Shown here: piece by piece, positions 3,895-48,989 of the stretch
Layout: every line of letters starts with the position of its first letter
Position numbering within the stretch: the stretch's first letter is position 1
NCBI GenBank assembly: GCA_937903605.1
Contig: CALCZC010000013.1
Location: 1-48,989, forward strand
DNA: 48,989 bases
Direction: 5' to 3'
From: an uncultured bacterium
GTDB lineage: Bacteria > Patescibacteriota > Patescibacteriia > Magasanikbacterales > GWA2-37-8
Made by a program: the position numbers and the translations under genes
The notes under the pieces: model-generated
What the model was told of the DNA's origin: nothing
Database searches by the model: none
What the model saw: only the letters and a program-made list of their open reading frames with translations

Positions 3895-4314
3895 TTATTC
3901 GGCTGGGCCGGCTGTTTTGATAACAGAAGAAGATAAATCTTTATTTATTTCTAACGGTTGATAAATAATGTTTTCGTATTTCTCATAAAAAAATACATTA
4001 CGTATTTTTGACGGAATTGTCAAGGGGTTCTTTTTATATTCTATCAAGACAGTTGCTTTTTCCAGAGCCGTCATGTCAATATTTTCTATACTAAAACCGG
4101 ATTTATTAACTACGGTTTCGCTGGTTTTATCAAGCAAAGCGTTAGTTTGATAATAACTTAAACGAAGAAAATAAAAAATTGATAAAGACATTAATAAAAA
4201 CGTAAAAAGGACCACAGCTTTCCAAATAAAAATTTCATCTTTATTTTTAACCGTGATTTCGCTGAGATATTTTGCCAGTTTTTTTGTCAAAGGAATTTTT
4301 TTAGGGGTTGACAT
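3895..4314 (-). CDS. Single-TM protein at the end of the pil operon (PilP-position hypothetical)
   Basis: 139 aa, one TM helix, overlaps the end of the PilO-like gene. Confidence 0.55.
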   Translation of the reverse strand: MSTPKKIPLTKKLAKYLSEITVKNKDEIFIWKAVVLFTFLLMSLSIFYFLRLSYYQTNALLDKTSETVVNKSGFSIENIDMTALEKATVLIEYKKNPLTIPSKIRNVFFYEKYENIIYQPLEINKDLSSSVIKTAGPAE

Positions 4315-4846
4315 ATAATTTTATGCTTAAACGTAAGTCGGATTTTGAATTTTCCGAAGATTCCGGATTGGCAAGATCGTAAATTGGGTTAAAATCCAAA
4401 GAAGTTATTTGTAAAAAATAATTATAATTTTCCAAGTCTGCCAAACACTTTAAAACATCGGGATATTTCCCAGTAAAGCGCAAGCTCATGACAATTGTGT
4501 TGTTGGTTATCTTGTCCAAGTTCGATGACTCTATTTTTAGAGCAGATTGATTTTTGATAGCGATTTTTTCTAAATCGGTTATTAGATCCAATTCTTTTCC
4601 TGGGCTGAATAAATATTGTTTATAATCACTCATGGTAACTTTGGTATAGCGAACCTGGTCAAGGACTTCTTTGAGGTTTTGTGAACCGCGACTTTTTTCT
4701 TCCATTTCTTGAATATAATTTCTAATCTCTTTGTCTTTTGCCCTAATCATGGTTTCCATTTTGAAGACACCGAAAGCAACGATTCCGTCCAAAAGAATAA
4801 AGAGAAAAATAAGTAATTTTATTTGTTTGAGAAAATTTTTATTCAT
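4301..4846 (-). CDS. pilO: Type IV pilus assembly protein PilO-like
   Basis: N-terminal TM, coiled coil and SLRFTGKYPDVLKCLADLEN ferredoxin-like fold pattern; follows pilN. Confidence 0.7.
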   Translation of the reverse strand: MNKNFLKQIKLLIFLFILLDGIVAFGVFKMETMIRAKDKEIRNYIQEMEEKSRGSQNLKEVLDQVRYTKVTMSDYKQYLFSPGKELDLITDLEKIAIKNQSALKIESSNLDKITNNTIVMSLRFTGKYPDVLKCLADLENYNYFLQITSLDFNPIYDLANPESSENSKSDLRLSIKLYVNP

Positions 4847-4849
4847 ATA

Positions 4850-5377
4850 TTAATGCAATTCAAGCCCGATATTAAAAGAAATATTTTCTTTTTGTAATAA
4901 TTGCGATTTTGGTATATCTACATTTTTAATCCAAGGTATATTTTTCAAGATTGTTTCATAAGCAAGTAACGCGTCTCTGTCTTTGGCAACCCCAGGTAAA
5001 AAAAGAGCTTTTTTGTCCAAATTTAAAGAAAAAGAAGAAATCTTAATATTAGAAGGCGCGGTTTGGAGTAAATCTAGAAACTTCGGAGTAAGTTCTTGAT
5101 AATCTTGTCCAGCGACATTTATATTTTGTATGCTTTGATTAAGCTGACGAATTTCTTTGTTGTATTCCACAAAACTATTATCAACCAAAGATTTGCTTTG
5201 ATTGAGATTGTTAAGTTGTTGGTTGAGATTGTAATAAAAAATAGTTAAAAAACAAAGAAAAATCAAAAGCAAATAAAAAGAATTGCTTAAAAAATTCTTT
5301 ATCAGATTTATTCTGGTCAAGATTGCTAGTTCTTTCTTTTTATTTTTTGGCAATAAATTTAAATTGAGAATCATCAT
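4850..5377 (-). CDS. pilN: Type IV pilus assembly protein PilN-like
   Basis: N-terminal INLLP-type motif (LNLNLLP), TM helix, coiled coil and GVAKDRDALLAY; follows pilM. Confidence 0.8.
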   Translation of the reverse strand: MMILNLNLLPKNKKKELAILTRINLIKNFLSNSFYLLLIFLCFLTIFYYNLNQQLNNLNQSKSLVDNSFVEYNKEIRQLNQSIQNINVAGQDYQELTPKFLDLLQTAPSNIKISSFSLNLDKKALFLPGVAKDRDALLAYETILKNIPWIKNVDIPKSQLLQKENISFNIGLELH

Positions 5378-20412: not shown

Positions 20413-20485
20413 CGCGGGATAGAGCAATTGGCAGCTCGCCAGGCCCATAACCTGGAGGTTCTCGGTTCAAGTCCGAGTCCCGCAA
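20413..20485 (+). tRNA. Initiator tRNA-fMet(CAT)
   Basis: C1:A72 mismatch (CGCGGGA/TCCCGCA), CCAGG-CCCATAA-CCTGG anticodon arm, GGTTCAAGTCC T arm. Confidence 0.93.
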
Positions 20486-20670
20486 CTAAAAAGAGACCCA
20501 ATAGTTTGGGTCTCTTTTCGGACTTGAACGCCGGACCGATATTGCGCGACGCAGGCGAGCGAGCGCAATCGGGAGGCGGTGGTCAGACCGAGGAGCCGGA
20601 AGGCGACGAGAGTCGCGACCAAGTCCGAGTCCCGCAACTAAAAAGAGACCCAATAGTTTGGGTCTCTTTT
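20468..20670 (+). repeat. 51-bp direct repeat (tRNA-fMet 3' end + terminator) enclosing a 101-bp GC-rich palindromic element
   Basis: 20468-20518 is identical to 20620-20670. The element starts with TCGGACTTGAAC, the inverse of the T-arm GTTCAAGTCCGA. Confidence 0.9.
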
Positions 20671-35513: not shown

Positions 35514-35542
35514 GAGTCGTGTATTTTAGCACGACTCTTTTT
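35514..35542 (+). terminator. Terminator between the radical SAM gene and the integrase
   Basis: GAGTCGTG-tattttag-CACGACTC followed by a T-run. Confidence 0.75.
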
Positions 35543-35555
35543 TATTTACTCCTTA

Positions 35556-36368
35556 TCAAAGAGGGCTTTTGATATTTTTGATACTGGGATTAGTCACGTG
35601 AGTATATATTTGCGTAGTGCGGATATTGGCGTGGCCCAAAAGCTCTTGTACATAACGTACATCAACGCCGTTTTCTAGTAGGTGAGTGGCGAAACTATGG
35701 CGTAAACTATGAAAGCTAGCGGGTTTTTTGATCCCTGATTTTTTCAATGCTTCTTCAAATATGGCTTGCGCGGTTCTGACGGTGAGTTTGCCACCACGAT
35801 TACTTTCAAAAAGATAATCCTCGCCGTTTCGTTCACCTGTCAAAAAATATAAATCATTTTTGATATTTTCTGGAATAACGGTTATCCTGTCTTTTTTGCC
35901 TTTGCCTTGCCTTACTTTCAAAATTAGTTCATCAAGTAAAACGTCTTTTATTTTCAAATCAACAACTTCACTCACTCGCAATCCCGCTCCATAAGCTAGA
36001 GATAATAGTAACAAATGTTTTTTATTGGTAACTTGAGATAAGATATTTTTGATTTCTTCTTTACTCAAAACTTCCGGCAAAGAATTGTTTCTTTTGGCAA
36101 ATTTTAGATCAACTCTTTGGTTATTTTTCAAAACATCATGATAGAAAAATTTTATAGCGTGTAAATACAAATTAATTGTTTGAGGAGAAAAATGCTTGTC
36201 TTGTTTTGAAAGTAAAAATTGTCTGATTTTGTCTATACTCAAAACCTCAAAATCAACTCTCAAAAAGATAAAATAATCTCTTAAACAGCCAAGATAGGAG
36301 TCAATGGTCCGAGGGCTATAATTACGTAGTCGTAACTCAATCCGAGTTTTGTCTAAAAATTCTTGCAT
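35556..36368 (-). CDS. IntI-like tyrosine recombinase (short form, no I2 insertion)
   Basis: LRLRNYSPRTIDSY N-domain; catalytic GLR, GKGKKDR, HSLRH, LLGH and TQIY; C-terminal SPL as in IntI; divergent from a cassette array. Confidence 0.92.
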   Translation of the reverse strand: MQEFLDKTRIELRLRNYSPRTIDSYLGCLRDYFIFLRVDFEVLSIDKIRQFLLSKQDKHFSPQTINLYLHAIKFFYHDVLKNNQRVDLKFAKRNNSLPEVLSKEEIKNILSQVTNKKHLLLLSLAYGAGLRVSEVVDLKIKDVLLDELILKVRQGKGKKDRITVIPENIKNDLYFLTGERNGEDYLFESNRGGKLTVRTAQAIFEEALKKSGIKKPASFHSLRHSFATHLLENGVDVRYVQELLGHANIRTTQIYTHVTNPSIKNIKSPL

Positions 36369-36473
36369 ATTTTGATAAAAAAGAGTAAAATTTGTATATA
36401 TTTATATACAACAACATTATACATAAAATTCGTAAAATATACAAATTTAGGTATATTTCACGTAGTTTTATTC

Positions 36474-36493
36474 GTATAACAACCAGTTGCGCA
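36474..36493 (+). other. Candidate attI site
   Basis: GTATAAC-AACCA-G|TT, an inverted AAC/GTT core with a 5-bp spacer, 105 bp upstream of the integrase start. The first mini-cassette begins at the G|TT. Confidence 0.6.
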
Positions 36494-36639
36494 AAATTTC
36501 GCTTCGCTCATTTTGCGCAATGTGCGGCGCATAACTGCGCCAGCTGTGCTTCGCGAAGCTTCGCACAACTGTCGCATATCCAAAATGGCGATCTGATGAC
36601 AAAGTCATCATCTCACCACTTCGGATTATGCGCCGCACA
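36487..36639 (+). mobile_element. 153-bp gene-less mini-cassette type A, copy 1
   Basis: TTGCGCAAAAT...GCCGCACA, identical to copies 2-4; inserted at G|TT. Confidence 0.9.
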
Positions 36640-36826
36640 TTATACGCAATTCAAAAAATATTTTTCTTTTAATAAGGAATTTTGACAGGCTTTTTTAAAG
36701 GGGAATAAATTTGTTTTTTTATTTATTAGAAAGGGGTATAAGGTGTTTTCTCCGCTTCGCTACGAAAACGATTTATTTATAAGGGGAAAACGAATACAAT
36801 ACAAATACCTATCACGAAAATAATTT

Positions 36827-38629
36827 ATGCCAAAAATTAAGGATATGCCTAAGATTGACCGCCCAAGAGAACGATTTTTGCAAAAAGGGGCTGATGCACT
36901 TTCAAAGAGTGATCTTTTGGCAATTCTTTTGGGTAGCGGAATTAAGGGGAAAAATGTTAGACAGCTTTCGGAAAATATTATTAAAAAATTCGGTAAAAAC
37001 TTTTTAAATATCACCGTTGATGATCTTTTAGAAATTTCGGGAATTGGACAAGCTAAAGCATTACAAATTGCTTCCGCTGTTTCGTTAGTAAAAAGATTTT
37101 ACGACGAGGACAAAACAAACGAAATTGTTATAAAAAACTCTCAAGATGTTTTATCCCTTACTTATGATTTAAGAGACAAGAAAAAAGAACATTTAGTTTG
37201 TCTTTATTTGAACGCACGAAATGTTTTGTTGAAAAAAGAAATTGTTAGTGTAGGTCTTTTAGACAAAGCATTGCTACATCCGAGAGAAATTTTTTACCCT
37301 GCAACCGAATTAAACGCCGCCAGTGTAATTTTGGTTCACAATCACCCTTCGGGCGATTCTTCACCTAGCGAAAAAGACAACCAAATTATTGAAAAAATTG
37401 TGCAAGCCGGCGAGATCATGGGAATACCTGTTATTGATTTTATTATTATTTCGACAAATGGAAATTATAGTTTTTTTGAAAAGTTAAAAGGTCAAAACAC
37501 AAATTTTGATTATGTAGCGGATGGTGTACAGGGAACGCTTTTTAATCTGTTGGAAATTGAAAAATCACCTTACGAGGTAACGATAAAAAAGATCGAAAAG
37601 CCATATTTTCATTTTTCAAAGACAAAAAGCAATTCATTCCAGCTACAAAATAGAAGATATTTAGGAAACAAGCATAAATTACTTGGTTTTATTGAAGATA
37701 TTGTTTCTGAAAAATGCAATGGAATAAAATCATTTTGCGATATTTTTGCCGGCACAGGCGTTGTTGGCGAAAGATTTAATAAGCCCACAATCAAAGTTAT
37801 TTCAAATGACATACTTTTTAGTAACTACGCTTGTCTAAAAGCTTTTCTCGGCATAAACACAAACATAGATAACATTACGGAAAAAATAAAAATTTTAAAT
37901 AACCTACAAGCTACTGAAGATAATTATTTCTCAAAGCATTTTGGAAATACTTATTTTTCACTAGAAAACGCTAAAAAAATTGGGGCTATCAGAGAAGAAA
38001 TAGAAAATATTGCAGAATCCGAAGAAGAAAAAAACGCTCTCATTTGCTCGCTATTATATGCAGTTGACAAAGTTGCAAACACCGTCGGTCACTATGATGC
38101 CTTTCGTAAAGATTTAGACATGATTCAGCCAATAATGCTGTTAACGCCAGATATTGATTACTCAAACAATGCAAATAACGAAGTTTACAAGGAAGATGCA
38201 AATATTTTGATTAGAAAAATTTCTTGTGATGTATTGTATATCGACCCGCCATATAACTCACGTCAATATTCAGATGCTTATCACTTGCTTGAAAATCTTG
38301 CGGAATGGAAAAAACCAGAAGTCGAAGGAGTGGCAAAAAAAATGGATCGTTCACACATCAAAAGTTCCTACTGCCTCAAAAATGCGACGCAGGCATTTGA
38401 AGATTTAATCAGAAATGCGGATTGTAAACATATTTTATTATCATATAATAATACTGGGGATTCAAAAGACGGACGATCAAATGCCAGAATTTCTGACAAT
38501 GACATTTTAAGAATATTAAAAAACAAAGGAGAAGTTGAAATTTTTGAAAGAGATTACAAAGCCTTTACCGCGGGCAAGAGTAATGGCGACGGAAATGCGG
38601 AAAGAATTTTTTATTGCAAAGTAAACTAA
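36827..38629 (+). CDS. RadC (JAB) - D12-class N6-adenine DNA methyltransferase fusion
   Basis: PRERF...LLAILLGSG, HPREIF and VHNHPSGDSSPSEKD (RadC), then RRYLGNK, DIFAGTG and YIDPPYN (MTase), in one frame. Confidence 0.9.
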   Translation: MPKIKDMPKIDRPRERFLQKGADALSKSDLLAILLGSGIKGKNVRQLSENIIKKFGKNFLNITVDDLLEISGIGQAKALQIASAVSLVKRFYDEDKTNEIVIKNSQDVLSLTYDLRDKKKEHLVCLYLNARNVLLKKEIVSVGLLDKALLHPREIFYPATELNAASVILVHNHPSGDSSPSEKDNQIIEKIVQAGEIMGIPVIDFIIISTNGNYSFFEKLKGQNTNFDYVADGVQGTLFNLLEIEKSPYEVTIKKIEKPYFHFSKTKSNSFQLQNRRYLGNKHKLLGFIEDIVSEKCNGIKSFCDIFAGTGVVGERFNKPTIKVISNDILFSNYACLKAFLGINTNIDNITEKIKILNNLQATEDNYFSKHFGNTYFSLENAKKIGAIREEIENIAESEEEKNALICSLLYAVDKVANTVGHYDAFRKDLDMIQPIMLLTPDIDYSNNANNEVYKEDANILIRKISCDVLYIDPPYNSRQYSDAYHLLENLAEWKKPEVEGVAKKMDRSHIKSSYCLKNATQAFEDLIRNADCKHILLSYNNTGDSKDGRSNARISDNDILRILKNKGEVEIFERDYKAFTAGKSNGDGNAERIFYCKVN

Positions 38630-38634
38630 AATCT

Positions 38635-40470
38635 ATGAAAAAACCTTGGTCAATAACAACAACTACCAGAAGTCCTTACCGACTAAAAGAGCAACTGCGA
38701 GTATTAGTTGATAATTTTTCCGGCTTTGAGTGGACAAGAGAAAATCAGATAAATTTTCAGATTTCTTTGATTCAACACCGCTTATATGGACACAACGAAG
38801 ATACCGGTTTTTCTCAACAATTTTTAAACGGCTTGTCGGAAACACACAAAGAAATATTCACTGATTTTTCGCATATCTTAACTTTTGAAGAAGCTAAAGA
38901 GATATTTGATAGCAAAAATTACGAGGATCCCTCAATGAGAGGTCGACAATCCTTTAACCCATTTAAAAAATTCGGATTTGTGAGATTGAGAAAGAAAATT
39001 TTAGAAATAACACCATTCGGTGAGAATTTTTTGTCTAATGAGCATGATCTTTCAGATATATTTTTTAGTAGTTTTATAAAATGGCAATTACCTAATCCCG
39101 ATAATTCTGGCTACAAATTGGCTGACGGCTACAATATAAAACCATTTATTGGAATACTCCACCTTATACGCAAGGTGAATGAAAAATCTTTGGCATTAGG
39201 AGAAAAAAATAAAGGAATTAGTAAGGCAGAATTTTCATTATTTGGCCCCTCGCTAGTAAATTTTAATGACGTTGATTCATACGCTGAAAAAATTATTGGC
39301 TTACGACAAAAATTGAATGGAAAAAATAAGCAAGAACAAAAAGCTATTTTTGAGCAGTATAAAAAAACTTTTGCAAAAGAATTTCTCCAGTCCGACAATC
39401 CAAAAGGAGTAAATAAACTCCTTAAAAACTTGAAAGATTACGGCGATAATGCCATTAGGTACTTCCGATTAACTAACTATATCTATATTCGTGGTGGTGG
39501 TTTTTATATTGATTTAGAGCCGAGAAGGTCTGTTGAAATTAACGCCTTGCTAGATTTTGACAATGCACAATCCAAAACATTCGCAACTAAAGAGGCGTAT
39601 TTTGATTACATTTCCGACATTGCGCAACCGCATCTCCCTTGGGAAACAAAAGAAAAGTACATTGAGATTGTTGCCAAACTTATTGAAGAAGTAAAGAATT
39701 ATGAAACTGAATTAGAAAAAGAGCCCGTTGTAATACAGGACTATTCAAAATTGGAGGAAACTGAACTAAAAACATACATTGCCGAGCTTAGAAAATACCG
39801 ACGAGAATTACAAGATCAAGAAGCTCACAGTAAATCCCAAGACACAGAAGCAATAAAATCCTATATCCAAGAATTGGAAAATATTTTTGATGCCGATGAC
39901 AAACCTATACTGCTTGAAAAACTTTCATCGTTAGGCTTGCACGCACTAAACGATGCTCTAAAAATACAACCAAATTATCCTGTCGGAGACGACAACGAGC
40001 CAACATTTACAGCACCAGCCAACACGCCCGATATAGAATGCTTTTATAAAAGCTTCAATGCTATTTGCGAAGTAACAATGCTCACGGGACGAGATCAATG
40101 GTATAATGAGGGTCAGCCAGTTATGAGACATTTAAGGGATTTTGAAAGTAAATATAATGACAAAAACTCTTATTGCTTGTTTATTGCGCCAAAAATTCAC
40201 AGGGATACAGTCAATACTTTTTGGACTGCTATAAAATATGAATATGAAGGCAAAAAACAAAGGATAATTCCCCTGTCAATCGGCAATTTTGTTTCTCTTC
40301 TGAATATCTTGGTTAAAATAAAATCAGAAAATAAATTTTTGAAGCACAGCGAAATTTCCAGACTGTATGATGAAATAATCAATTCATCAAATTCTTTTAA
40401 CGATTCCAACGAATGGCTCAAAAATATTCCTGCGACTATTTCGTCATGGCAAGAAAGCCTAACATTCTAA
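38635..40470 (+). CDS. AlwI/Nt.BstNBI-family type IIS restriction endonuclease
   Basis: WSITTTTRSPYR, DPSMRGRQS and PTFTAPANTPDIEC...EVTMLTGRDQWYNEGQPVMRH; flanked by two MTases. Confidence 0.85.
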   Translation: MKKPWSITTTTRSPYRLKEQLRVLVDNFSGFEWTRENQINFQISLIQHRLYGHNEDTGFSQQFLNGLSETHKEIFTDFSHILTFEEAKEIFDSKNYEDPSMRGRQSFNPFKKFGFVRLRKKILEITPFGENFLSNEHDLSDIFFSSFIKWQLPNPDNSGYKLADGYNIKPFIGILHLIRKVNEKSLALGEKNKGISKAEFSLFGPSLVNFNDVDSYAEKIIGLRQKLNGKNKQEQKAIFEQYKKTFAKEFLQSDNPKGVNKLLKNLKDYGDNAIRYFRLTNYIYIRGGGFYIDLEPRRSVEINALLDFDNAQSKTFATKEAYFDYISDIAQPHLPWETKEKYIEIVAKLIEEVKNYETELEKEPVVIQDYSKLEETELKTYIAELRKYRRELQDQEAHSKSQDTEAIKSYIQELENIFDADDKPILLEKLSSLGLHALNDALKIQPNYPVGDDNEPTFTAPANTPDIECFYKSFNAICEVTMLTGRDQWYNEGQPVMRHLRDFESKYNDKNSYCLFIAPKIHRDTVNTFWTAIKYEYEGKKQRIIPLSIGNFVSLLNILVKIKSENKFLKHSEISRLYDEIINSSNSFNDSNEWLKNIPATISSWQESLTF

Positions 40471-40473
40471 CTT

Positions 40474-41250
40474 ATGGGTATGAAAACAAACATTATTTAT
40501 AACGACGATTGCGTAGATATACTCAAATTAAAAATTGATAAGGAATCAATTGATCTTATTTTTGCCGATCCGCCATATAACTTATCTGGCAACGGACTAT
40601 CTTGGAAAGGCAATAAAACTGGTGGTGATTGGTACATGGTAAATGAGGCATGGGACAGAATGTCCGCACCAGAATACCTGCAATTTACCAGAAAATGGAT
40701 TGGTGGTGCCTATCGTGCATTGAAAGACGGCGGATCAATTTATATTTCCTGCACTTATCACAATATCGCAGAAGTCATGATTGTTTTGAAGCAACTGGAT
40801 TTCAAAATCAATAATATCATCACTTGGCAAAAAACAAATGCGATGCCGAATATGACAAGACGAGTTTTTACACACTCTACTGAATTTGTAGTTTGGGCGG
40901 TAAAAGGCAAAAAATGGATTTTTAACTACGAAGAATTAAAGAAACTAAACCCCGACAAACAGAAAGACGGATCTCTAAAACAAATGCGAGACGTTTGGCA
41001 ATTGCCTCTCGTTCAGGGCAAAGAAAGAATCAGAGGAAATGATAACAGGGCTATTCACCCCACCCAAAAGCCAGAAGAAATGTTGCGTCGTATTATTCTC
41101 GCATCTTCGAACAAGGGCGATATTGTTCTTGATCCATTTTTAGGTAGTGGGACGACAACTTTTGTAGCAAAAAAACTTGGGAGGAAATGGATAGGAATAG
41201 AAAAGGACAAAAAATATTTTACGGTTGCGGAAAAAAGAATGAATTATTAG
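40474..41250 (+). CDS. beta-class N4/N6 DNA methyltransferase
   Basis: [14 protein letters not shown] and [11 protein letters not shown]. Confidence 0.93.
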
Positions 41251-41254
41251 AAAT

Positions 41255-43279
41255 ATGAACAATAATGAATCAAAAACAAACGGCTGGCTACATAATAGGT
41301 TTTTCCTATTTTTAACTTTTACTATTGCTTTGCTTGGTGCAAATTATTTTTTTACAGGAAACCTTTTTCCTAGCACTAATACAAAAGAGCTTTGGTTTTA
41401 CTCTGGAATTTTCATGGTTCTTTTTTCGATTCTTTTTATTGAGCCGTATTATACATCTCCTAAAAATGTTATAACCAACGCCATCCCGCTATTGCTTGTT
41501 TTTCTTTCGATAGAAAATACCTTTGAAAACAAAATCTTATGGTGGATTGCGGTTGCAATAATTTTAGCTCTACTTTTCTTTTCAATTATCGCAATTGCGT
41601 TAGAGGATAAAAATAAAAGTCCAAATCATTTGAAAAATAAATTTTCAGAATTGTTAAAAAAACTTGTAGTAATTGTCGGCAAGGGAAAAATTATCTATTC
41701 CGCAGTTTTTCTTTTATTCTTATTCGTTAACATTACATCAAAACCGGCAGAAGATTTTAATCAGATATTTGATAGTTATTTTGTGGTTTTACTAATCTTT
41801 TGGGGCTTAATTCTTTCTATTGATCCGAAAGAAATAAATAATACTTTTTCTTTAAAGAAAAAAATACTTAATGATGATGCACTAGGCGAAATTTTTGGAG
41901 TTCAATCTAGAAAAATATTTCTGGTAAAACTTTTTGAGGATAGAAAAGAAATAAAAAAGTTTGACATAGTAAGATTTAGATATTCAATGCAGGATTCAAA
42001 TGATTTTTTAATATCAGGCATTGTTTTTGACACATATTTACTTAATCAAGAGAAGTGGGCAAAGGTTTTGCAATTAGGGAAAATAGCAAAAAACAGTTCT
42101 AGTGCCGAAAAAAATGTTGTTTATAAAGTATCAAATAGCGAAGAAATCGACACACTGGAAAAAGAATTACGCACAGATCGCTTTGTTGGTATTGTGATTG
42201 AAGGCTCAAACATAGGAAAAATTAAATTTGAGTATTCAAAAAAACAAGAGGATTTACAAGAGGGAGATTTAATCGAACTAAAAACAAATGATAAAAGATT
42301 ATTTTATCAAGTAATTAACGGACTAACTGAAAAGGAATCTTTGGAACATCGAAATGAAACAAGTTTTATTAAAGGCGAGGCAATTCAACTTGGAGAATGG
42401 AAAAACGATGATCTCTCCTTTCAAAAATATGGCTGGGTACCTTCCATAAATACGCCTATTTTTAAAGCTGACACGTCTGATATTGAAGTGAAGAGTTTTA
42501 ATTATCCCGAATACAAACTTGGAATAATTCCCAATACTTCATTGCCTTCTGTAATTAACTTAGCTCAAGCAGTTAGTCATCATATGGCTCTATTAGGCGT
42601 TACTGGATCAGGTAAATCCTTTCTCGCTCGCGAAATTATAAAAGAATTAACTAATGATACAAAAATAATTTGTGTTGATTTTACAAGTGAATGGAAAAAG
42701 GAGGTTGAAAAAACAGCAATTACTCCAACAATATTAAACAAGGACAATATAGACACTTTTTTAAGCGGTACGGATAAAATTGGGATTGTTGAATTGCCCG
42801 CAATGAGTAATACAGTTGAAATTATAAGTGCCACAGAAAAACTTTTTGAAGCAATATTTAATTTTGCAAAAAAGAAATACGACGAACAAAATCCAACAAA
42901 AATATCTCTCGTACTTGAAGAAGCTCACACAATAGTTCCTGAAGAAAAATTTTTAGGTGTTAATAATTGGGATAGTAAGGCTATAGTAAATAAGATGGGG
43001 CAGATTGCCTTACAGGGCAGAAAATACGGAATAGGCTTACTTGTCATCGCACAAAGAACTGCAAATGTTTCTAAAACAGTTTTAACGCAATGTAATACAG
43101 TTATTTGTTTTCAAGCATTTGACGAGACTAGTTTTAATTTCTTAGGAAATTATGTCGGCAAAGATCTCGTTCTGACACTTCCAAATTTAAAACAATACCA
43201 TGCAATTGTTACTGGCAAAGCTATCAAATCAAATGTTCCAATGATTATTGATTTAGAAAGAAAAAAGGAGAAAGAATAA
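41255..43279 (+). CDS. Membrane-anchored HerA/FtsK-like (DUF87) ATPase
   Basis: About 6 N-terminal TM helices, HAS-barrel-like middle, HMALLGVTGSGKS, LVLEEAH and GRKYGIGLLVIAQR. Confidence 0.85.
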   Translation: MNNNESKTNGWLHNRFFLFLTFTIALLGANYFFTGNLFPSTNTKELWFYSGIFMVLFSILFIEPYYTSPKNVITNAIPLLLVFLSIENTFENKILWWIAVAIILALLFFSIIAIALEDKNKSPNHLKNKFSELLKKLVVIVGKGKIIYSAVFLLFLFVNITSKPAEDFNQIFDSYFVVLLIFWGLILSIDPKEINNTFSLKKKILNDDALGEIFGVQSRKIFLVKLFEDRKEIKKFDIVRFRYSMQDSNDFLISGIVFDTYLLNQEKWAKVLQLGKIAKNSSSAEKNVVYKVSNSEEIDTLEKELRTDRFVGIVIEGSNIGKIKFEYSKKQEDLQEGDLIELKTNDKRLFYQVINGLTEKESLEHRNETSFIKGEAIQLGEWKNDDLSFQKYGWVPSINTPIFKADTSDIEVKSFNYPEYKLGIIPNTSLPSVINLAQAVSHHMALLGVTGSGKSFLAREIIKELTNDTKIICVDFTSEWKKEVEKTAITPTILNKDNIDTFLSGTDKIGIVELPAMSNTVEIISATEKLFEAIFNFAKKKYDEQNPTKISLVLEEAHTIVPEEKFLGVNNWDSKAIVNKMGQIALQGRKYGIGLLVIAQRTANVSKTVLTQCNTVICFQAFDETSFNFLGNYVGKDLVLTLPNLKQYHAIVTGKAIKSNVPMIIDLERKKEKE

Positions 43280-43541
43280 ATGGGGTAAGCAAATAAAAGG
43301 CAAAAATTCCCTCCCCTTAAACCCCTTCCTTTTTGCCTTTTATTTGAAGAGAATAAGGAGTTTTGGATTTTGGGCATTCACCCCTAACCCCTCTGCCCAA
43401 AATCCAAAACAAAAAAACAAATTTATGATTATTGAATAAAAAGCCTGTCAAAATGAAATTGAATGAAAAATATTTTTTGAACTCGCTCCTTTCAATCGCG
43501 CCCCGCTGCGCTCTCGCCTCCGCTACGCTACGGCTCGGGGC

Positions 43542-43640
43542 GTATAACACAGCGTATGCGGTTCGGGGCTCGGCTCGCCCCTCACCCATATTTTTGCTCC
43601 CGTTGGTCGCAAAAACATCGCATACGCTGGAACGTTGCGC
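43542..43640 (+). other. attC site 1
   Basis: R'' GTATAAC, L'' CAGCGTATGCG, L' CGCATACGCTG, then GAAC-G|TT. CGTATAAC complements the cassette start G+TTATACG (36640). Confidence 0.85.
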
Positions 43641-43787
43641 AAAATTTCGCTTCGCTCATTTTGCGCAATGTGCGGCGCATAACTGCGCCAGCTGTGCTTC
43701 GCGAAGCTTCGCACAACTGTCGCATATCCAAAATGGCGATCTGATGACAAAGTCATCATCTCACCACTTCGGATTATGCGCCGCACA
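43635..43787 (+). mobile_element. 153-bp mini-cassette type A, copy 2
   Basis: Identical to 36487-36639. Confidence 0.9.
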
Positions 43788-43811
43788 TTATATGAAATAC
43801 ATCACAAAATT

Positions 43812-44612
43812 ATGATAATCGACAGTCATTTACATCTATCATACTTAGATGAAGAGAAAAAAAATCTTTTCGAAGTAAAAAAAGAACTTTTAGAATCAAT
43901 GGAAAAATACGGTATTGATTATTCGATTGTCATTCCCGATAACGTGCCAAACCCAAAATGCGCTGATACAGAAACAATGTTTAATATCATTGGAGACGAC
44001 AAACAGTTTTTTTCAATGGGAACCATAAATATTTTTCAAGATATAGAAAAACAAATATTAAATTTAGAATCACTGATAACGGCCAAAAAAATTTGCGCTA
44101 TCAAGCTTTTTCCTGGACACGACCCCTTCTATCCTGTCGATGAGAAATGCCAACTAATTTATGAATTATGCGCTAAACACGATATTCCAGTTGTTTTTCA
44201 TACTGGTGCAAACACTGGAAATGCTGATTGCGCAAAATATAATGATCCAAAATACATTGTCGAAATTGCAAAAAAATACAACACCTTAAAAGTTGTCATT
44301 TCACATTTTTTTTGGCCTAAGATGGAATATTGTTATGAGGCAACCAAAGACTTGAAAAATATTTATTACGATACTTCAGCAATGGCAGATGATGAAGTTG
44401 TTGAAAGTTCTGGTGGCTGGGATAAAGTTGTAGAAATATTGAAAAAAACTGTTTTACATAAACCTAAAAACGTTTTGTTTGGCACTGACTGGCCAATGTG
44501 CCCTGTCGATAAACACATAAAATTAATCAAAGATTTGGGATTAGATTCCAGAACCGAAGAAAAGATTTTTTTTCTTAACACAGTTGATCTATATAAACTC
44601 GAAATTTTGTGA
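43812..44612 (+). CDS. Amidohydrolase_2-family metal-dependent hydrolase (cassette gene)
   Basis: IIDSHLHL, IKLFPG, VVFHTG, ISHFFWP, YYDTS and LFGTDWP. Start moved to ATG 43812. Confidence 0.88.
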   Translation: MIIDSHLHLSYLDEEKKNLFEVKKELLESMEKYGIDYSIVIPDNVPNPKCADTETMFNIIGDDKQFFSMGTINIFQDIEKQILNLESLITAKKICAIKLFPGHDPFYPVDEKCQLIYELCAKHDIPVVFHTGANTGNADCAKYNDPKYIVEIAKKYNTLKVVISHFFWPKMEYCYEATKDLKNIYYDTSAMADDEVVESSGGWDKVVEILKKTVLHKPKNVLFGTDWPMCPVDKHIKLIKDLGLDSRTEEKIFFLNTVDLYKLEIL

Positions 44613-44620
44613 TGTACTTC

Positions 44621-44777
44621 ATATAACACCTGCCTATGCGGTTACAGAATTTTTCCAAATCCAATTAACGCCAAGGAATAAAAAATTCTTCCACCCAAAT
44701 TTTTATCTTTCTTTTCTTAAGAGAATTAACATCAAGGAAGAAAGATAAAAACTTCGCATCATCCGGATACGTTGCGC
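44621..44777 (+). other. attC site 2
   Basis: CATATAAC complements the cassette start G+TTATATG (43788); CTATGCG...CGCAT arms (imperfect, possibly hybrid); GGATAC-G|TT. Confidence 0.75.
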
Positions 44778-44924
44778 AAAATTTCGCTTCGCTCATTTTG
44801 CGCAATGTGCGGCGCATAACTGCGCCAGCTGTGCTTCGCGAAGCTTCGCACAACTGTCGCATATCCAAAATGGCGATCTGATGACAAAGTCATCATCTCA
44901 CCACTTCGGATTATGCGCCGCACA
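44772..44924 (+). mobile_element. 153-bp mini-cassette type A, copy 3
   Basis: Identical to copy 1. Confidence 0.9.
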
Positions 44925-44943
44925 TTATATAAAATTTTATACT

Positions 44944-45270
44944 ATGAAAAAATTGATTGTCGTTTTATCCAGCGGTGCATTGGTTCTACCAGAAATAGCT
45001 AATGCGTGTTATTTAACGCCCAATTTTAAGAATATTTTTTTAAGTGGCATTATTGGCCTGGTCTTATCCGCCATACTGATAACATTAATTCATAAAAAAA
45101 TAAGTAAGTTATTTGCAAAAAAATACAAATATTATTTGCTGTTTATACCAATTTACATAATAATGACCTTGATACTCATTATGATTATCCCGCTGGATAA
45201 AACGACAATTGAATGTGGGAATACTACAGGAAATGAGCAACTACCAGAAAATTTTGGCAAAACGCCATAA
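44944..45270 (+). CDS. Small membrane protein (cassette gene)
   Basis: 108 aa from ATG 44944, signal-like N-terminus and 2 TM helices. Confidence 0.7.
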   Translation: MKKLIVVLSSGALVLPEIANACYLTPNFKNIFLSGIIGLVLSAILITLIHKKISKLFAKKYKYYLLFIPIYIIMTLILIMIIPLDKTTIECGNTTGNEQLPENFGKTP

Positions 45271-45313
45271 ATACCGGAAATCAAAACGATATTTTTTCAT
45301 AGTATAAAACTTT

Positions 45314-45726
45314 ATATAACAGCGTATATACGGCTCACAAGCGAAATAAAATTATTTTTTCTTTTATGCGTGGAGATAACAACATTTTACGGTTAGACGG
45401 CGCAAATATGGATATTGATTTGACTTCCGGGGATAAAACTTCGTGGAAGCAAACAGAATGTCCATGGAATGAGGCCGAGGGTACAAATGAACACAAATGC
45501 GCCGTCAAAAATGTTTCTATTTGCAAATATTTCTGCGGAATTGAGTATTTAGACAATGTTTTGTGCTGTTATCCCAACAAAAATATGCTGGTGGATAACA
45601 AACAGAAAAAATAATTATATTTTTAATCGCTTGTTCGCCCAAATTCGGTTTCCGTTTTGTGTTGGCGCTCCGCGCAATTTTAACACAAAACTACAACCGA
45701 ACTTCGTATATACGCGTACATTGCGC
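45314..45726 (+). other. attC site 3, with a ~400-bp variable region containing an ORF
   Basis: TTATATAAC complements the cassette start G+TTATATAA (44925); GCGTATATACG (45322-45332) pairs with CGTATATACGC (45705-45715); then GTAC-A|TT. Confidence 0.75.
45366..45614 (+). CDS. Small Cys-rich hypothetical protein inside attC3
   Basis: 82-aa ATG ORF with 6 Cys; protein-like composition in otherwise structured DNA. Confidence 0.55.
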   Translation: MRGDNNILRLDGANMDIDLTSGDKTSWKQTECPWNEAEGTNEHKCAVKNVSICKYFCGIEYLDNVLCCYPNKNMLVDNKQKK

Positions 45727-45873
45727 AAAATTTCGCTTCGCTCATTTTGCGCAATGTGCGGCGCATAACTGCGCCAGCTGTGCTTCGCGAAGCTTCGCAC
45801 AACTGTCGCATATCCAAAATGGCGATCTGATGACAAAGTCATCATCTCACCACTTCGGATTATGCGCCGCACA
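45721..45873 (+). mobile_element. 153-bp mini-cassette type A, copy 4
   Basis: Identical to copy 1. Confidence 0.9.
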
Positions 45874-45934
45874 TTAAGTGAAATTGAATTTTGACAACGA
45901 TTGTAAAATACAAGTTCATTTATAAAATAACCTT

Positions 45935-46330
45935 ATGAAAATTTTTGTTCAATTTGTTTCAAGCTTAGTGGGCGGCATATTGTTAGGCATCATTGGACTT
46001 TTTATTGGCTCCATGATTGGCGGCAATTTCGGCTTCCCTGAATTCGGAGGTAACGTTGGATATCAAGCAGGAGGCCCTTTTTTCGGAATTATTGGAATTT
46101 CGCTAGGAAGCCTCCTTGGAATAATAGCTGCTAAAAGAATTCAAAAGGATCAGTTTATATATTCAATAACCTCAATAGCCGCCATTATAACAACTATTAT
46201 CGGCTTACTTCTTTTTGATTACAATATGCCGCCAGCTATTGGCTTTAGTATACCTTTGATGCCAGCAATAGTATTAATAATCGTCACAAATTGGCAAAAA
46301 TTTTTTAAAATTAAACTAAATAAAACTTAG
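45935..46330 (+). CDS. Gly-rich multi-TM membrane protein (cassette gene)
   Basis: 131 aa, about 4 TM helices with GxxxG repeats. Confidence 0.7.
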   Translation: MKIFVQFVSSLVGGILLGIIGLFIGSMIGGNFGFPEFGGNVGYQAGGPFFGIIGISLGSLLGIIAAKRIQKDQFIYSITSIAAIITTIIGLLLFDYNMPPAIGFSIPLMPAIVLIIVTNWQKFFKIKLNKT

Positions 46331-46345
46331 CCAAAATTCAACATC

Positions 46346-46432
46346 ACTTAACACGGGATACACGGTAAAGTCTTTCGCGGAAAGACTTTACTCAAATTGC
46401 TACGCAACTTCGCTTATCCCGGAACGTTATCT
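46346..46432 (+). other. attC site 4
   Basis: CACTTAAC complements the cassette start G+TTAAGTG (45874); CGGGATA...TATCCCG arms; internal hairpin GTAAAGTCTTTC/GAAAGACTTTAC; GAAC-G|TT. Confidence 0.85.
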
Positions 46433-46596
46433 AAAATGTCTCTCGCTCCGCTCGCTCCATTTTAGATAATGTGGCGCGTATATCTCCGCTGTTCTCCTCG
46501 CGTCGCTTCGCGACACTTCAGATAACAGCGGATAATCTGTAATATCTGTCTGACGACTTCGTCGTCATCCAGCTACTACAGATTATCCGCGCCACA
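46427..46596 (+). mobile_element. 170-bp gene-less mini-cassette type B
   Basis: TTATCTAAAATG/CATTTTAGATAA hairpin, then AATGTGGCGCG...CGCGCCACA|TT main stem with two branches; same layout as type A with a different sequence. Confidence 0.8.
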
Positions 46597-46659
46597 TTGT
46601 GTGAAATATTTTAGAAAAATTTAAATTTATATCATATTTATTAATAATATATAATTACC

Positions 46660-48036
46660 ATGAAAAAAACACTTATTATTTTAATTACAGTGACGGCTGT
46701 TTTATTAATCGGAGCTTTTTATTTTTTCAACAGAGAATCAGCTGGACAGAAACAAGAACAAGTTTTATTAGAACAGACATATGAAATTTCTAAAGAGTAT
46801 CTTTCTCTTCGTCTCCAAACCGATGATGTTTTGATTAATGCCAAGAATTATCCTGATTATGAATCATGGAATACAGAAATGACAAAAATTATCAGTGATT
46901 GGAATAATTTAGAAAAAAAATCACAAGAATTGCAAGAAACTGCTTTTGAAATTGTAGAATTGTCTGCTATAGATTTTGATTTAATCCCAACAGCCAATGC
47001 TTATACTGCCAAAGAAATCTCAGATATTTATGACGGAGCGCCTAAATTCCAAGGTATCGCAACTCTAGCCAAACATTTGGGAGTGGATGCCAAAAGAGCC
47101 CAAGTGATTTTAGACAAGGCGCAAGCTGAGATAAGCGCCGGTGTTTTTAGTGAAGAAGGAGATGCCTTTGAAAATCTGGAAAATACCGCGATTGTAGTGA
47201 AAGATGGCTGTAAAGTGGCCGGTTTTGTGGGCGGAGTAGTAATAACCGGAGGTGCTGCGGGATTTGCAGCTGCCGGTACGATGGCCCAAGTAGGTACAGT
47301 TGTTGTAGGAGTAGATCTGGCACTTGAAGTGACAGAAGACGGAGCTCAAATTGCTTTTGGAGATAAAAATAAAGTGTCTTCTTTTGTCAAAGATATCAGA
47401 ACAGTTACCGAACCCGTTGCAAACGTATTGGCAATTACCAATATACCCGGCAACCTTGGTACCGCATACGGGAAAATCGAAAGCGTTATGATAGGATTGG
47501 AAAAGTTTCGAGAGACTGCTCAAGAAGGTAAGGTAATCGGTATTAACCTTAACAATTTCAAATACCAACCATCTTTTCAGCTTATCAAAAAAACCAAATA
47601 TCCGGGAACAGTAACAGTAGCAGAAATGGAAAAGGCGGAAGTAGAAGAATGGTTAAAAAGTTTAAACAAAAAACAAGAGCCGATGTCTCAAGAAGAAATT
47701 AAAAAGTTTTTATCAAGCTCGCTTAAATCGATAAAACAAGAAAAAGAAGATGCAAAAAATGAGACTATAGATACCGCAGAAAAAGCAAACAACGAAGTTA
47801 AGCTGATGTCAGTTGATGAATTTCAAGAACTTTTTGACGAAGAAGTGGCTTTTGAAAGTGTTTCAAAAGCCAAGAAAATTTTTGGCGAACCCGACGAAGT
47901 TAATATGTTTGAGGATGGGTATGGAAATTATGTTTATCGCAAAAGATTGGTATATCCAAACGGCAATGTTGCAAAGTTTACAATAAGATTTCATAATAAG
48001 GACGTTGAAGGTTACAGTATCGGACTAGATGAATAA
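46660..48036 (+). CDS. Membrane-anchored hypothetical protein
   Basis: 458 aa; N-terminal TM, helical region and a central Gly/Ala-rich hydrophobic hairpin. Confidence 0.75.
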   Translation: MKKTLIILITVTAVLLIGAFYFFNRESAGQKQEQVLLEQTYEISKEYLSLRLQTDDVLINAKNYPDYESWNTEMTKIISDWNNLEKKSQELQETAFEIVELSAIDFDLIPTANAYTAKEISDIYDGAPKFQGIATLAKHLGVDAKRAQVILDKAQAEISAGVFSEEGDAFENLENTAIVVKDGCKVAGFVGGVVITGGAAGFAAAGTMAQVGTVVVGVDLALEVTEDGAQIAFGDKNKVSSFVKDIRTVTEPVANVLAITNIPGNLGTAYGKIESVMIGLEKFRETAQEGKVIGINLNNFKYQPSFQLIKKTKYPGTVTVAEMEKAEVEEWLKSLNKKQEPMSQEEIKKFLSSSLKSIKQEKEDAKNETIDTAEKANNEVKLMSVDEFQELFDEEVAFESVSKAKKIFGEPDEVNMFEDGYGNYVYRKRLVYPNGNVAKFTIRFHNKDVEGYSIGLDE

Positions 48037-48081
48037 TAGTATTGTTAAATTTTTGAAAAAATTTTTAATTAACTAAAAAAT

Positions 48082-48423
48082 ATGAAAAAAAGAGTATTTG
48101 TGGCTATTTTATCAGGAGCTTTTTTGGGTATTTTTTGTATAATCGGAGTAAGTAGTAGACTTGGTTTTGCCGGAAATGAATTGTTTATATTATCTACTTG
48201 GATAAATAGAGTAGTCATGGGTTTAGTAATAGGCTTGGCGCCATATTATCAAATCCAAAATAATACCAAAAATATTATATTGCGCGGAGCGTTGCTCGGA
48301 CTCATAATAAGTGGTTCATTTTTCTTAGCCACAGACTTCAAAGATATCCTAGGATTTTTTGCAGGAATTGTTTACGGGATAATTATAGATTTTGTTGCGA
48401 CAAAATACGGAGAAAAGAAATAA
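48082..48423 (+). CDS. Four-TM membrane protein
   Basis: 113-aa hydrophobic ORF. Confidence 0.7.
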   Translation: MKKRVFVAILSGAFLGIFCIIGVSSRLGFAGNELFILSTWINRVVMGLVIGLAPYYQIQNNTKNIILRGALLGLIISGSFFLATDFKDILGFFAGIVYGIIIDFVATKYGEKK

Positions 48424-48665: not shown

Positions 48666-48694
48666 ATAAAACACTCCGATAAGGAGTGTTTTAT
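48666..48694. terminator. Bidirectional terminator
   Basis: ATAAAACACTCC-gataa-GGAGTGTTTTAT. Confidence 0.8.
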
Positions 48695-48989
48695 AGTGCC
48701 CGCCCCAAAGGGGCCCCTTCGGGGGTGTGGGAATCTGCTTCGCCTCTCGTCGTCTTCCGACTCCTCGGGCTAGCCACCAGCTCGCGGTTTTACTCGCCCG
48801 CAAGCTCGTAAAACATCGCTCCGCTGTTCTCATCCTGACGCGAGCAAACAGTTTTGCTCGCTCCCCAGACAAAATAACACAGACCAAAAAAGGTCTGTGT
48901 TATTTTGTCTGGGGCGGGAATTCCTCGTCGTCTCGCCGACAAATATCGGCTCGACTCCTTGCCCTGGGCAGCGTCGGATTCACACTGTG
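48695..48989 (-). repeat. Tandem GC-rich palindromic elements related to the tRNA-fMet-associated element
   Basis: The reverse complement of 48744-48778 matches 20578-20612 at 30/35. A perfect 23-bp inverted repeat lies at 48863-48885/48892-48914. Confidence 0.75.

Follow-up and report, generated by a model that had tools for sequence, protein, structure and literature searches.

Integron integrases (IntI) are defined by the possession of an additional domain, I2. Experimental work credits the gain of I2 with converting a recombinase of the double-strand, Xer-like type into one that acts on single-stranded attC (PMC4792948, PMC7790495; Messier and Roy 2001, as reported in a citing paper), and the IntIs of the archaeal integrons reported in 2022 have the additional domain (PMC9668308). 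The tyrosine recombinases of candidate phyla include a subgroup of simple, Xer-related proteins, 'Cand', which is listed among the cellular Xer substitutes of those phyla in the sections of Smyshlyaev et al. (2021; PMC8138268) that treat it, and is described in those sections with no mention of cassette arrays or sites. Full-text literature searches turned up no account of cassette arrays, or of sites resembling attC, in Patescibacteria, the candidate phyla radiation (CPR). Here we describe a locus in a 48,989-nt contig of an uncultured patescibacterium (Magasanikbacterales; assembly GCA_937903605.1, contig CALCZC010000013.1, positions 1 to 48,989, hereafter the window), where the gene for a 270-residue tyrosine recombinase lies beside a conserved core site and an array of gene cassettes. 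In this ultrasmall Patescibacteria/CPR host, the locus looks like a natural integron working without an I2 domain.

The likeness to integrons, above all to sedentary chromosomal ones such as the Vibrio superintegron, begins with the overall plan. The recombinase gene diverges from a one-directional cassette array (Table 1), and an attI-like site with a crossover at G↓TT (the arrow marks the point of exchange) lies beside the gene. At the cassette sites, the elements are ordered R''-L''...L'-R' and include YAAC/GTTR boxes, the stems covary and an asymmetric spacer is left unpaired. The 5' end of a cassette matches its own 3' site, and the cargo consists of defence systems, toxin-like genes and small unknown genes. 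Unlike integrons, the window has a recombinase that lacks the IntI-specific insertion and scores below the cut-off of the IntI profile hidden Markov model (HMM), and structured mini-cassettes with no gene at the junctions of its array; the host phylum is the Patescibacteria, where the family appears near-universal rather than sporadic. We consider it probable that recombinase, core site and array together constitute an integron-like capture system that would operate without the I2 insertion.

The attI-like site is conserved across the family. The upstream DNA of relatives was gathered by six look-ups by identity and one metagenome scan (loci are designated by L numbers below). In nearly every family member, with integrases 43-99% identical, a conserved site TTCGYATAnAAAC(G/C)AG↓TTAnnCGAAAT is found ~100-130 nt before the start codon; in the window the gene and its own core site are ~118 nt apart. 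Across 27 loci G-1, T+1 and T+2 never vary, and conservation is strong at the positions that flank them. The core is a 9-7-9 imperfect palindrome, TTCGCATAG-AAACCAG-TTAGGCGAA. For comparison, the crossover in attI1 is at ...AAACAAAG↓TTAGGC. Homology between close relatives ends exactly at G↓TT. L002 and L003 encode integrases that are 99% identical to that of the window; the attI of L002 is empty of unit A, one of the mini-cassettes, and continues TTAGACGAAAT, and that of L003 is occupied and continues with the 153-nt unit A, as in the window. When a position weight matrix was built from attI sites (-6 to +11), it recovered the attI of the window and missed the attC junctions, a failure due to the 2-nt difference in spacer length.

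Many assemblies stop at this point. The contigs of L002, L003, L006, L008, L010, L012, L027 and others end 100-250 nt upstream of the recombinase gene, at or just past the attI-like site. The breaks fit strain-level heterogeneity of the arrays or repeats at that position, and because of them metagenome-assembled genomes (MAGs) systematically lose arrays. A separate case is L001 (CAYUIA010000002.1). At 4216-4877 it carries the distal half of an attI region together with an identical unit A and a single cassette bearing a strict attC (defined below), and there is no recombinase within 4 kb; either the locus has been rearranged or the array lacks an integrase. The MAG that holds this contig is labelled Gammaproteobacteria, the gene content is CPR-like and the bin label looks wrong.

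The far ends of the cassettes have a different architecture. In the window, each copy of unit A is preceded on its left by DNA with the ending CTTCGYATA-N10-↓TT, and ~50-380 nt upstream there is a word complementary to the ten bases that follow TCG, at 8-10 of 10 positions for attC1, attC3 and attC4 (attC2 has no clear complementary partner word). The complementary word is always preceded by YAAC-A. No such partner word accompanies the attI-type sites. The resulting attC-like layout is R''(..YAAC)-A-L''...L'-(KRAAC)-G↓TT-R'. Folding of the site, or circularity of the cassette, gives it an R stem and an L stem, with the two stems parted by a 1-by-4 asymmetric loop. The sequences of the paired L''/L' words change between sites (AGCGTATGC, GGCATATAC, AGAGTATGC, TGCATAAGC and others) with complementarity kept, and the words therefore covary.

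A strict attC was defined as AACA[ACG], a 9-nt word, the exact reverse complement of that word within 600 nt, 1-5 nt and AC[GA]↓TT, a definition that misses real sites such as attC2 and attC4 of the window. Over all fetched loci it matches 36 times on the cassette strand upstream of the recombinase gene, 0 times on the same strand downstream and three times on the other strand. A more permissive search (9-nt L stem, one mismatch) had yielded hundreds of chance matches on both strands of this AT-rich DNA, and was replaced by the strict definition.

R stems were compared in 18 cassettes. Positions 1-8 are Watson-Crick paired, position 9 is A·A in 14 of the 18 and position 10 is A·C on the top strand, which is G·T on the bottom strand, in 15; beyond this the pairs are cassette-specific. 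The R stems, of 16-29 bp, are cassette-specific here, unlike those of integrons, and the covarying L stem is ~11 bp long. In a further departure from integrons, the L stem has no extrahelical bases. The L stems are perfect and the asymmetry lies in the 1-by-4 loop and the conserved A·A/A·C mismatch at R-stem positions 9-10, so the sites have no counterpart of the extrahelical bases that are read by the IntI I2 helix. This absence fits the missing domain. The conserved bottom-strand G·T pairs, present in cassettes and mini-cassettes alike, are a hint that the bottom strand may be the one that folds, as in integrons. The R''-L'' strand reproduces the bottom-strand spacing of attI (AA↓C-N6-TATRCG), and the other strand has three extra bases (KRAAC vs A). 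The L' arm carries the TCGYATA word also found in attI, so that these sites, in contrast to those of integrons, mimic a dif-like duplex.

Pairing links the start of a cassette to the R'' at its own far end and not to the site that physically adjoins it, as would be expected of an array that grows by site-specific insertion of circles. For strict sites less than 2 kb apart, own-end pairing won in 11 comparisons, lost in 0 and tied in 3, and five consecutive cassettes in L023 obey the rule. In the window, cassettes 1 to 4 pair with their own R'' at 8/8, 23/24 (43788-43811 with 44603-44626; one A·C, at position 10), 28/29 (44925-44953 with 45291-45319) and 18/20 positions, respectively. Judged by base complementarity, this is the signature of a circular cassette.

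The same organism also occurs with variants of the array that differ at or near the predicted crossovers. They were sought in the assembled contigs of public metagenome runs (X numbers), and seven runs carry them. In X2, X4, X5, X6, X7 and X16, which come from several studies, position 36639 is joined to 46427, so that unit A runs into unit B and cassettes 1-4 are absent, with a 4-nt ambiguity (TTAT) at the joint. In X14, unit A is joined to 46597-46600 and unit B is absent too. X16 additionally joins 45717 to 46424, with unit A and cassette 4 absent. Two of the three breakpoints fall on predicted crossovers and the third lies within three bases of one. In X1, the likely source run, the contig of unit A has a depth of 39.8 against ~9.7 for its flanks, a ratio that fits four copies of unit A, all in this array.

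Cassette content is also shared between distant lineages. Window positions 36708-38844 (2137 nt), covering the RadC-methylase gene and the start of the AlwI-family endonuclease gene, match the far end of L026 at 92.9% identity. The integrase of L026 is only 58% identical to that of the window, and the shared segment lies ~7.8 kb from it and is not first in the array. Cassette 1 has its own leader of 190 nt. Segments of the leader (36640-36808) and of the trailer (43290-43600) carry nested inverted repeats and recur around other cargo in L004 (3648-3796), L016, L026, L029, L036, L041 and L043. The trailer is 96% identical in L004, where the 6.1-kb cassette carries an EcoRI-type methylase, GmrSD, an AAA ATPase and an S8 peptidase, and in one run 36808 is linked to 43291 with unspecified content in between. 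This suggests that leader and trailer form a reusable shell, the cargo of which is exchanged by some second process.

Table 1. Features of the recombinase locus and its cassette array (window coordinates)
Feature	Position	Strand	Remarks
Hairpin GAGTCGTG...CACGACTC then TTTTTT	35514..35543		Between recombinase gene and convergent radical-SAM-like gene; likely shared terminator
Tyrosine recombinase, 270 aa (CPR 'Cand'/XerA-like family)	35556..36368	-	ATG start, intact open reading frame (ORF)
12-8-12 imperfect palindrome CGTAAAATATAC-AAATTTAG-GTATATTTCACG	36431..36462	+	Between core site and gene start; also kept in L001
attI-like core TTCGTATAA-CAACCAG↓TT...	36471..36497	+	Crossover between 36486/36487; right arm now from inserted unit A
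Unit A, copy 1 (TT...CACA)	36487..36639	+	Structured 'mini-cassette' of 153 nt with no gene
Cassette 1	36640..43634	+	7.0 kb; four genes, attC1 at far end
Cassette 1 gene, RadC-Dam methylase	36827-38629
Cassette 1 gene, AlwI-family endonuclease	38614-40470
Cassette 1 gene, N6/N4 methylase	40474-41250
Cassette 1 gene, HerA-like ATPase	41255-43279
attC1, elements	R'' 43541-43548, L'' 43550-43560, L' 43619-43629, GAACG↓ 43630-43634
attC1, whole stretch	43541-43634 plus TTATATGAAAT		
Unit A, copy 2	43635..43787	+
Cassette 2	43788..44771	+	Amidohydrolase, ORF to 44612; attC2 ends ...GGATACG↓
Unit A, copy 3	44772..44924	+
Cassette 3	44925..45720	+	Small membrane protein, ORF to 45270; attC3 ends GTACA↓
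Unit A, copy 4	45721..45873	+
Cassette 4	45874..46426	+	131-aa membrane protein, 45935-46330; attC4 ends CGGAACG↓
Unit B	46427..46596	+	Gene-less, structured, 170 nt; sequence unlike unit A, same fold
Next unit	46597..48423	+	Starts with consensus R' TTGTGTGAAAT; ORFs 46660-48036 and 48082-48423; found in every examined run

Pfam assigns the protein to Phage_integrase (1.1e-42), with Phage_int_SAM_4, a SAM-like domain, at the N-terminus. The complete R-K-HxxR-H-Y set listed in a preliminary description of the locus could be located in the ORF, as R131 (GLRVSE), K156 (GKGKKDR), H220-x-x-R223, H246 and Y255, each invariant in 20 homologues, and the strings quoted there (ELRLRNYSPRTIDSY, KDRITVIP, GERNGEDYLFESNRGGKL, HSLRHSF, TTQIYTHV and the C-terminal KSPL) were all found. 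The same description held that the protein has IntI-like ends and lacks the IntI-specific insertion (the I2 region), and both points agree with the alignments. IntI proteins alone align end to end, in alignments that start at residue 3-5 and reach the terminal SPL, and IntI1 (35% identity) and VchIntIA match over the whole length; XerA and XerD alignments begin at residue 21-70 and end at 265. The ends are thus genuinely IntI-like, with the reservation that the KSPL(D) tail occurs in other short recombinases, such as an IS91-associated one, and is not IntI-specific. The alignment with VchIntIA (2a3v) falls into two blocks, query 3-169 with 4-173 and query 202-270 with 249-317, between which 32 recombinase residues stand opposite 75 of VchIntIA (IntI4). 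MAFFT places gaps in the recombinase, XerD and XerA opposite two IntI1 insertions, of 31 and 11 residues (the second being 'HTHSTDPRSGV'), and in tblastn 266 residues of the recombinase span 311 IntI1 codons. As far as these alignments go, the recombinase is a protein with an IntI-like N-terminal domain and C-terminal tail and with no IntI-specific insertion.

The family to which it belongs is very large. A search of 5.8 billion proteins returned homologues in at least 8000 clusters at 90% identity; the best 120 of these are almost all 270-271 aa long, 61-76% identical and from Patescibacteria. The hosts are named as Magasanikbacteria, Buchananbacteria, Vogelbacteria, Parcubacteria and Patescibacteria, and the proteins as 'site-specific recombinase XerD' or 'site-specific tyrosine recombinase/integron integrase'. 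In a second search, of 1.84 billion cluster representatives, the best 150 matches (at least 200 bits) are all short, insertion-less recombinases, some of them N-terminally extended; IntI and XerA reach only ~137-147 bits against the recombinase. Profile models for XerC and XerD give 195 and 193, far under their cut-offs, and the integron-integrase model NF011946 gives 133.2, below its cut-off of 435. The nearest annotated relative outside the CPR is a recombinase adjoining an IS91 transposase on the Clostridium tagluense plasmid pCM008-C. It resembles the window protein in its sequence (41% identity over the full length), its lack of the insertion, its KSPLD tail, its name at NCBI (NF040815, the NCBIfam XerA equivalog, also names the IS91-associated recombinase) and its side of the tree described below, and differs in being paired with the transposase. 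We assign the 270-aa recombinase to a Patescibacteria-wide short family that is most likely the 'Cand' subgroup of Smyshlyaev et al. (2021; PMC8138268), with the short Xer-related recombinases of candidate phyla in the 'Cand' sections of that paper as the point of likeness.

Whether this family lies closer to IntI or to Xer was examined in a maximum-likelihood tree of 44 sequences, which included a single IntI (IntI1), XerC, XerD and two partial XerA sequences. A branch of length 0.57, with a Shimodaira-Hasegawa-like approximate likelihood ratio test (SH-aLRT) value of 97, parts XerC, XerD and the two partial XerA from the CPR family; the IS91-associated group and IntI1, the sole IntI and on a long branch, lie on the same side as the CPR family. 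The preliminary description had allowed for the protein grouping with chromosome-dimer Xer recombinases, and this branch separates it from XerC, XerD and XerA. Forcing IntI1 to join the Xer proteins is not rejected (approximately unbiased test, p = 0.65), IntI being represented by one long branch. The tree cannot place the family nearer to IntI or nearer to Xer. Identities over aligned columns are similar (IntI1 35%, XerA 34-37%, XerC 32%, XerD 29%), and the best relatives of solved structure are XerA proteins, 4a8e and 5hxy. An AlphaFold2 model built from 20 sequences has a mean predicted local distance difference test (pLDDT) score of 68.6, with residues 139-192 below 50; searched with Foldseek, it finds VchIntIA (2a3v) best (E = 2.8e-11) and XerA next, a ranking that is weak support because the model is mediocre. 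On these comparisons we file the recombinase under neither IntI nor canonical Xer, as a family of its own that appears to work like an integron integrase. It is not filed as IntI because the defining insertion was tested for and is absent. The expectation in the preliminary description, that an integron-like system here would be missed by annotation, seems well founded, since the family is named XerD or 'integron integrase' and falls below the IntI cut-off, while the conserved site, the one-sided hairpin array and the own-end pairing point to such a system.

How might this system work? We propose that the recombinase joins circular cassettes to the core site at G↓TT and excises them again, and that a one-directional array diverging from the recombinase gene would thereby be built. 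One dimer would sit on the attI core and another on a cassette site, the R''/R' and L''/L' stems of which rebuild the same two arms. Exchange at G↓TT would then put the circle beside attI, and exchange between two sites would release cassettes. The folded bottom strand would be the substrate and the 270-aa protein the catalyst, and the asymmetric loop may stand in for the extrahelical bases and the I2 helix of classical integrons.

The strongest competitor holds that the recombinase is primarily or only a chromosome-dimer resolvase, a single Xer like XerA, XerS or XerH, with the palindrome as its dif and the cassettes as parasites resembling the integrative mobile elements exploiting Xer (IMEX). 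It has the same enzyme moving the cassettes as our reading has, and differs only in the primary function. Single-Xer systems (XerA/dif, XerS/difSL, XerH/difH) have recombinases of ~270-290 aa with no insertions, which provide the best HMM and solved-structure matches to the window protein (the XerA structures named above), and a palindromic core site lies beside the gene; here the dif-like 9-7-9 palindrome adjoins it, much as difSL adjoins xerS. IMEX, for their part, are non-autonomous elements integrated by a host-encoded recombinase. A very large, length-conserved family, and the standing of 'Cand' as an Xer stand-in of candidate phyla in the relevant sections of PMC8138268, point the same way. 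However, the well-supported tree branch separates the family from XerC/D/XerA and its ends align with IntI. Rather than simple duplex copies of dif, the cassette sites are long hairpins in which the stems covary and an asymmetric loop is conserved, and unlike Xer/IMEX elements those of the window follow the circular-cassette rule and stand in long co-oriented arrays. The window also shows no terminus signal: GC skew keeps its positive sign before the locus (12-35 kb) and after it (47-48 kb), where a terminus would bring a reversal, an argument that is weak because only 2.3 kb follow the array. We regard a resolvase with parasites as unlikely. Less probable still is an array built by another enzyme, such as a transposase or a canonical IntI encoded at some other place in the genome, with the recombinase adjacent only by chance. 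L001, with its attI remnant, unit A and cassette and no recombinase within 4 kb, would suit such an arrangement, but the conserved site adjoins this gene family in ~27 independent loci, the hairpin sites occur on that side only (36 vs 0), many contigs break right at the site and neither the window nor the listed 20-kb loci show a second recombinase. The least credible proposal, which we give almost no weight, takes the repeats for miniature transposable elements or genes of structured RNAs, either of which would land in terminator hairpins, and holds that there is no cassette system at all. The four identical copies of unit A, the fifth in another assembly and the strong fold (z = -8.3) are what one would expect of it. 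Against it, the junctions still form attC-like sites when the units are removed, most arrays elsewhere have no units and yet show the same sites and own-end rule, the units start with TT, end in CACA↓TT and have a cassette layout, and no Rfam family matches them.

Several observations weigh against an integron-like capture system. The missing domain is held to be necessary for attC recombination, by Messier and Roy (2001, as reported in a citing paper) and in Escudero 2020 (PMC7790495). The integron-integrase model TIGR02249 matches in two stretches with a score of 208, below its cut-off of 265, and NF040815 is narrowly passed (225.2 against 220), which also counts for the Xer alternative. A very large and strongly conserved family is as expected of a housekeeping Xer. 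The presence of unit A or B at every junction of the array isn't predicted by simple capture at attI first. The X16 joint has G at -1 where the attC3 of the window has A, so that either the breakpoint is resolved only to 1-3 nt or the strains differ. Finally, no circular cassette junction was seen in the assembled contigs of the public runs.

The gene-less units deserve separate consideration. They are 153-174 nt long, and one is found at every junction of the window array. Unit A is 100% identical in its four window copies, and a copy in another assembly (L001, 4275-4427) shares that sequence as the fifth; unit C occurs at L007 6785-6958 and in two more copies. Each unit has the R'/R''/L''/L' layout of a cassette, with an R' hairpin, AAT replacing AAC, a long L stem and the end CACA↓TT. 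Units A, B and C share one fold in three sequence types, with 21 of 59 pairs changed on both sides. The fold is more stable on the minus strand (-101.6 vs -73.6 kcal/mol on the plus strand; folding z = -8.3 for unit A, minus strand), where G·U pairs are conserved. Rfam searches gave no family for the units; the only matches were tRNAs at gathering thresholds and chance microRNA-like ones at E-value thresholds. An earlier view of the 153-158-nt repeats as a miniature transposable element or structured RNA was dropped, the unit-free junctions being attC-like and the units built like cassettes. The units could be selfish cassettes, insulators or terminators, or a source of antisense RNA.

Some further features of the region can be noted. 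The palindrome at 36431..36462 is a candidate accessory binding site or operator. attC3 has a long loop of 370 nt (L'' CGTATATACG / L' CGTATATACG), within which lies a Cys-rich ORF of 82 codons (45366-45614) bracketed by ACAAGCGA / TCGCTTGT; this may be a second small cassette with a decayed site. For the unit at 46597..48423, no closing attC was found before the window end. The last stretch, 48690-48989, is GC-rich and highly structured, with a perfect 28-nt hairpin (48858-48885 with 48892-48919) containing ATAACACAGACC, and might be the closing site of that unit or another element. Co-oriented genes diverge from the recombinase on the same side in L004, L007, L009 and L011, and the co-oriented accessory genes of relatives include restriction-modification, Fic, nucleotidyltransferase and small hypothetical genes. 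Elsewhere in the window, a perfect 51-nt direct repeat (20468-20518 / 20620-20670) begins in the 3' end of a tRNA-Met gene (20413-20486), with a hairpin at the end of each copy, and looks like the footprint of a small element integrated in that gene.

A broader proposal, which we advance only tentatively and think more doubtful than the capture system as such, is that the family provides a near-phylum-wide capture platform in Patescibacteria, in which the integrase would recombine folded bottom-strand sites without I2 and the same enzyme and site would serve as the sole Xer/dif pair of the cell. If such a phylum-wide dual platform exists, it would either be a living example of what integrons descended from before I2, or have invented cassette capture independently on dimer-resolution machinery. 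A natural, widespread and active cassette platform with an integrase that lacks the domain would, whether dual or not, offer a concrete system for testing how cassette capture arose. Surveys of metagenomes that keep only 'complete' integrons, for example PMC12259885, would then overlook the gene-capture loci of a whole phylum. Such loci would also be a main route for the exchange of defence systems among reduced genomes, as with the 7-kb restriction-modification cassette that is common to different lineages here.

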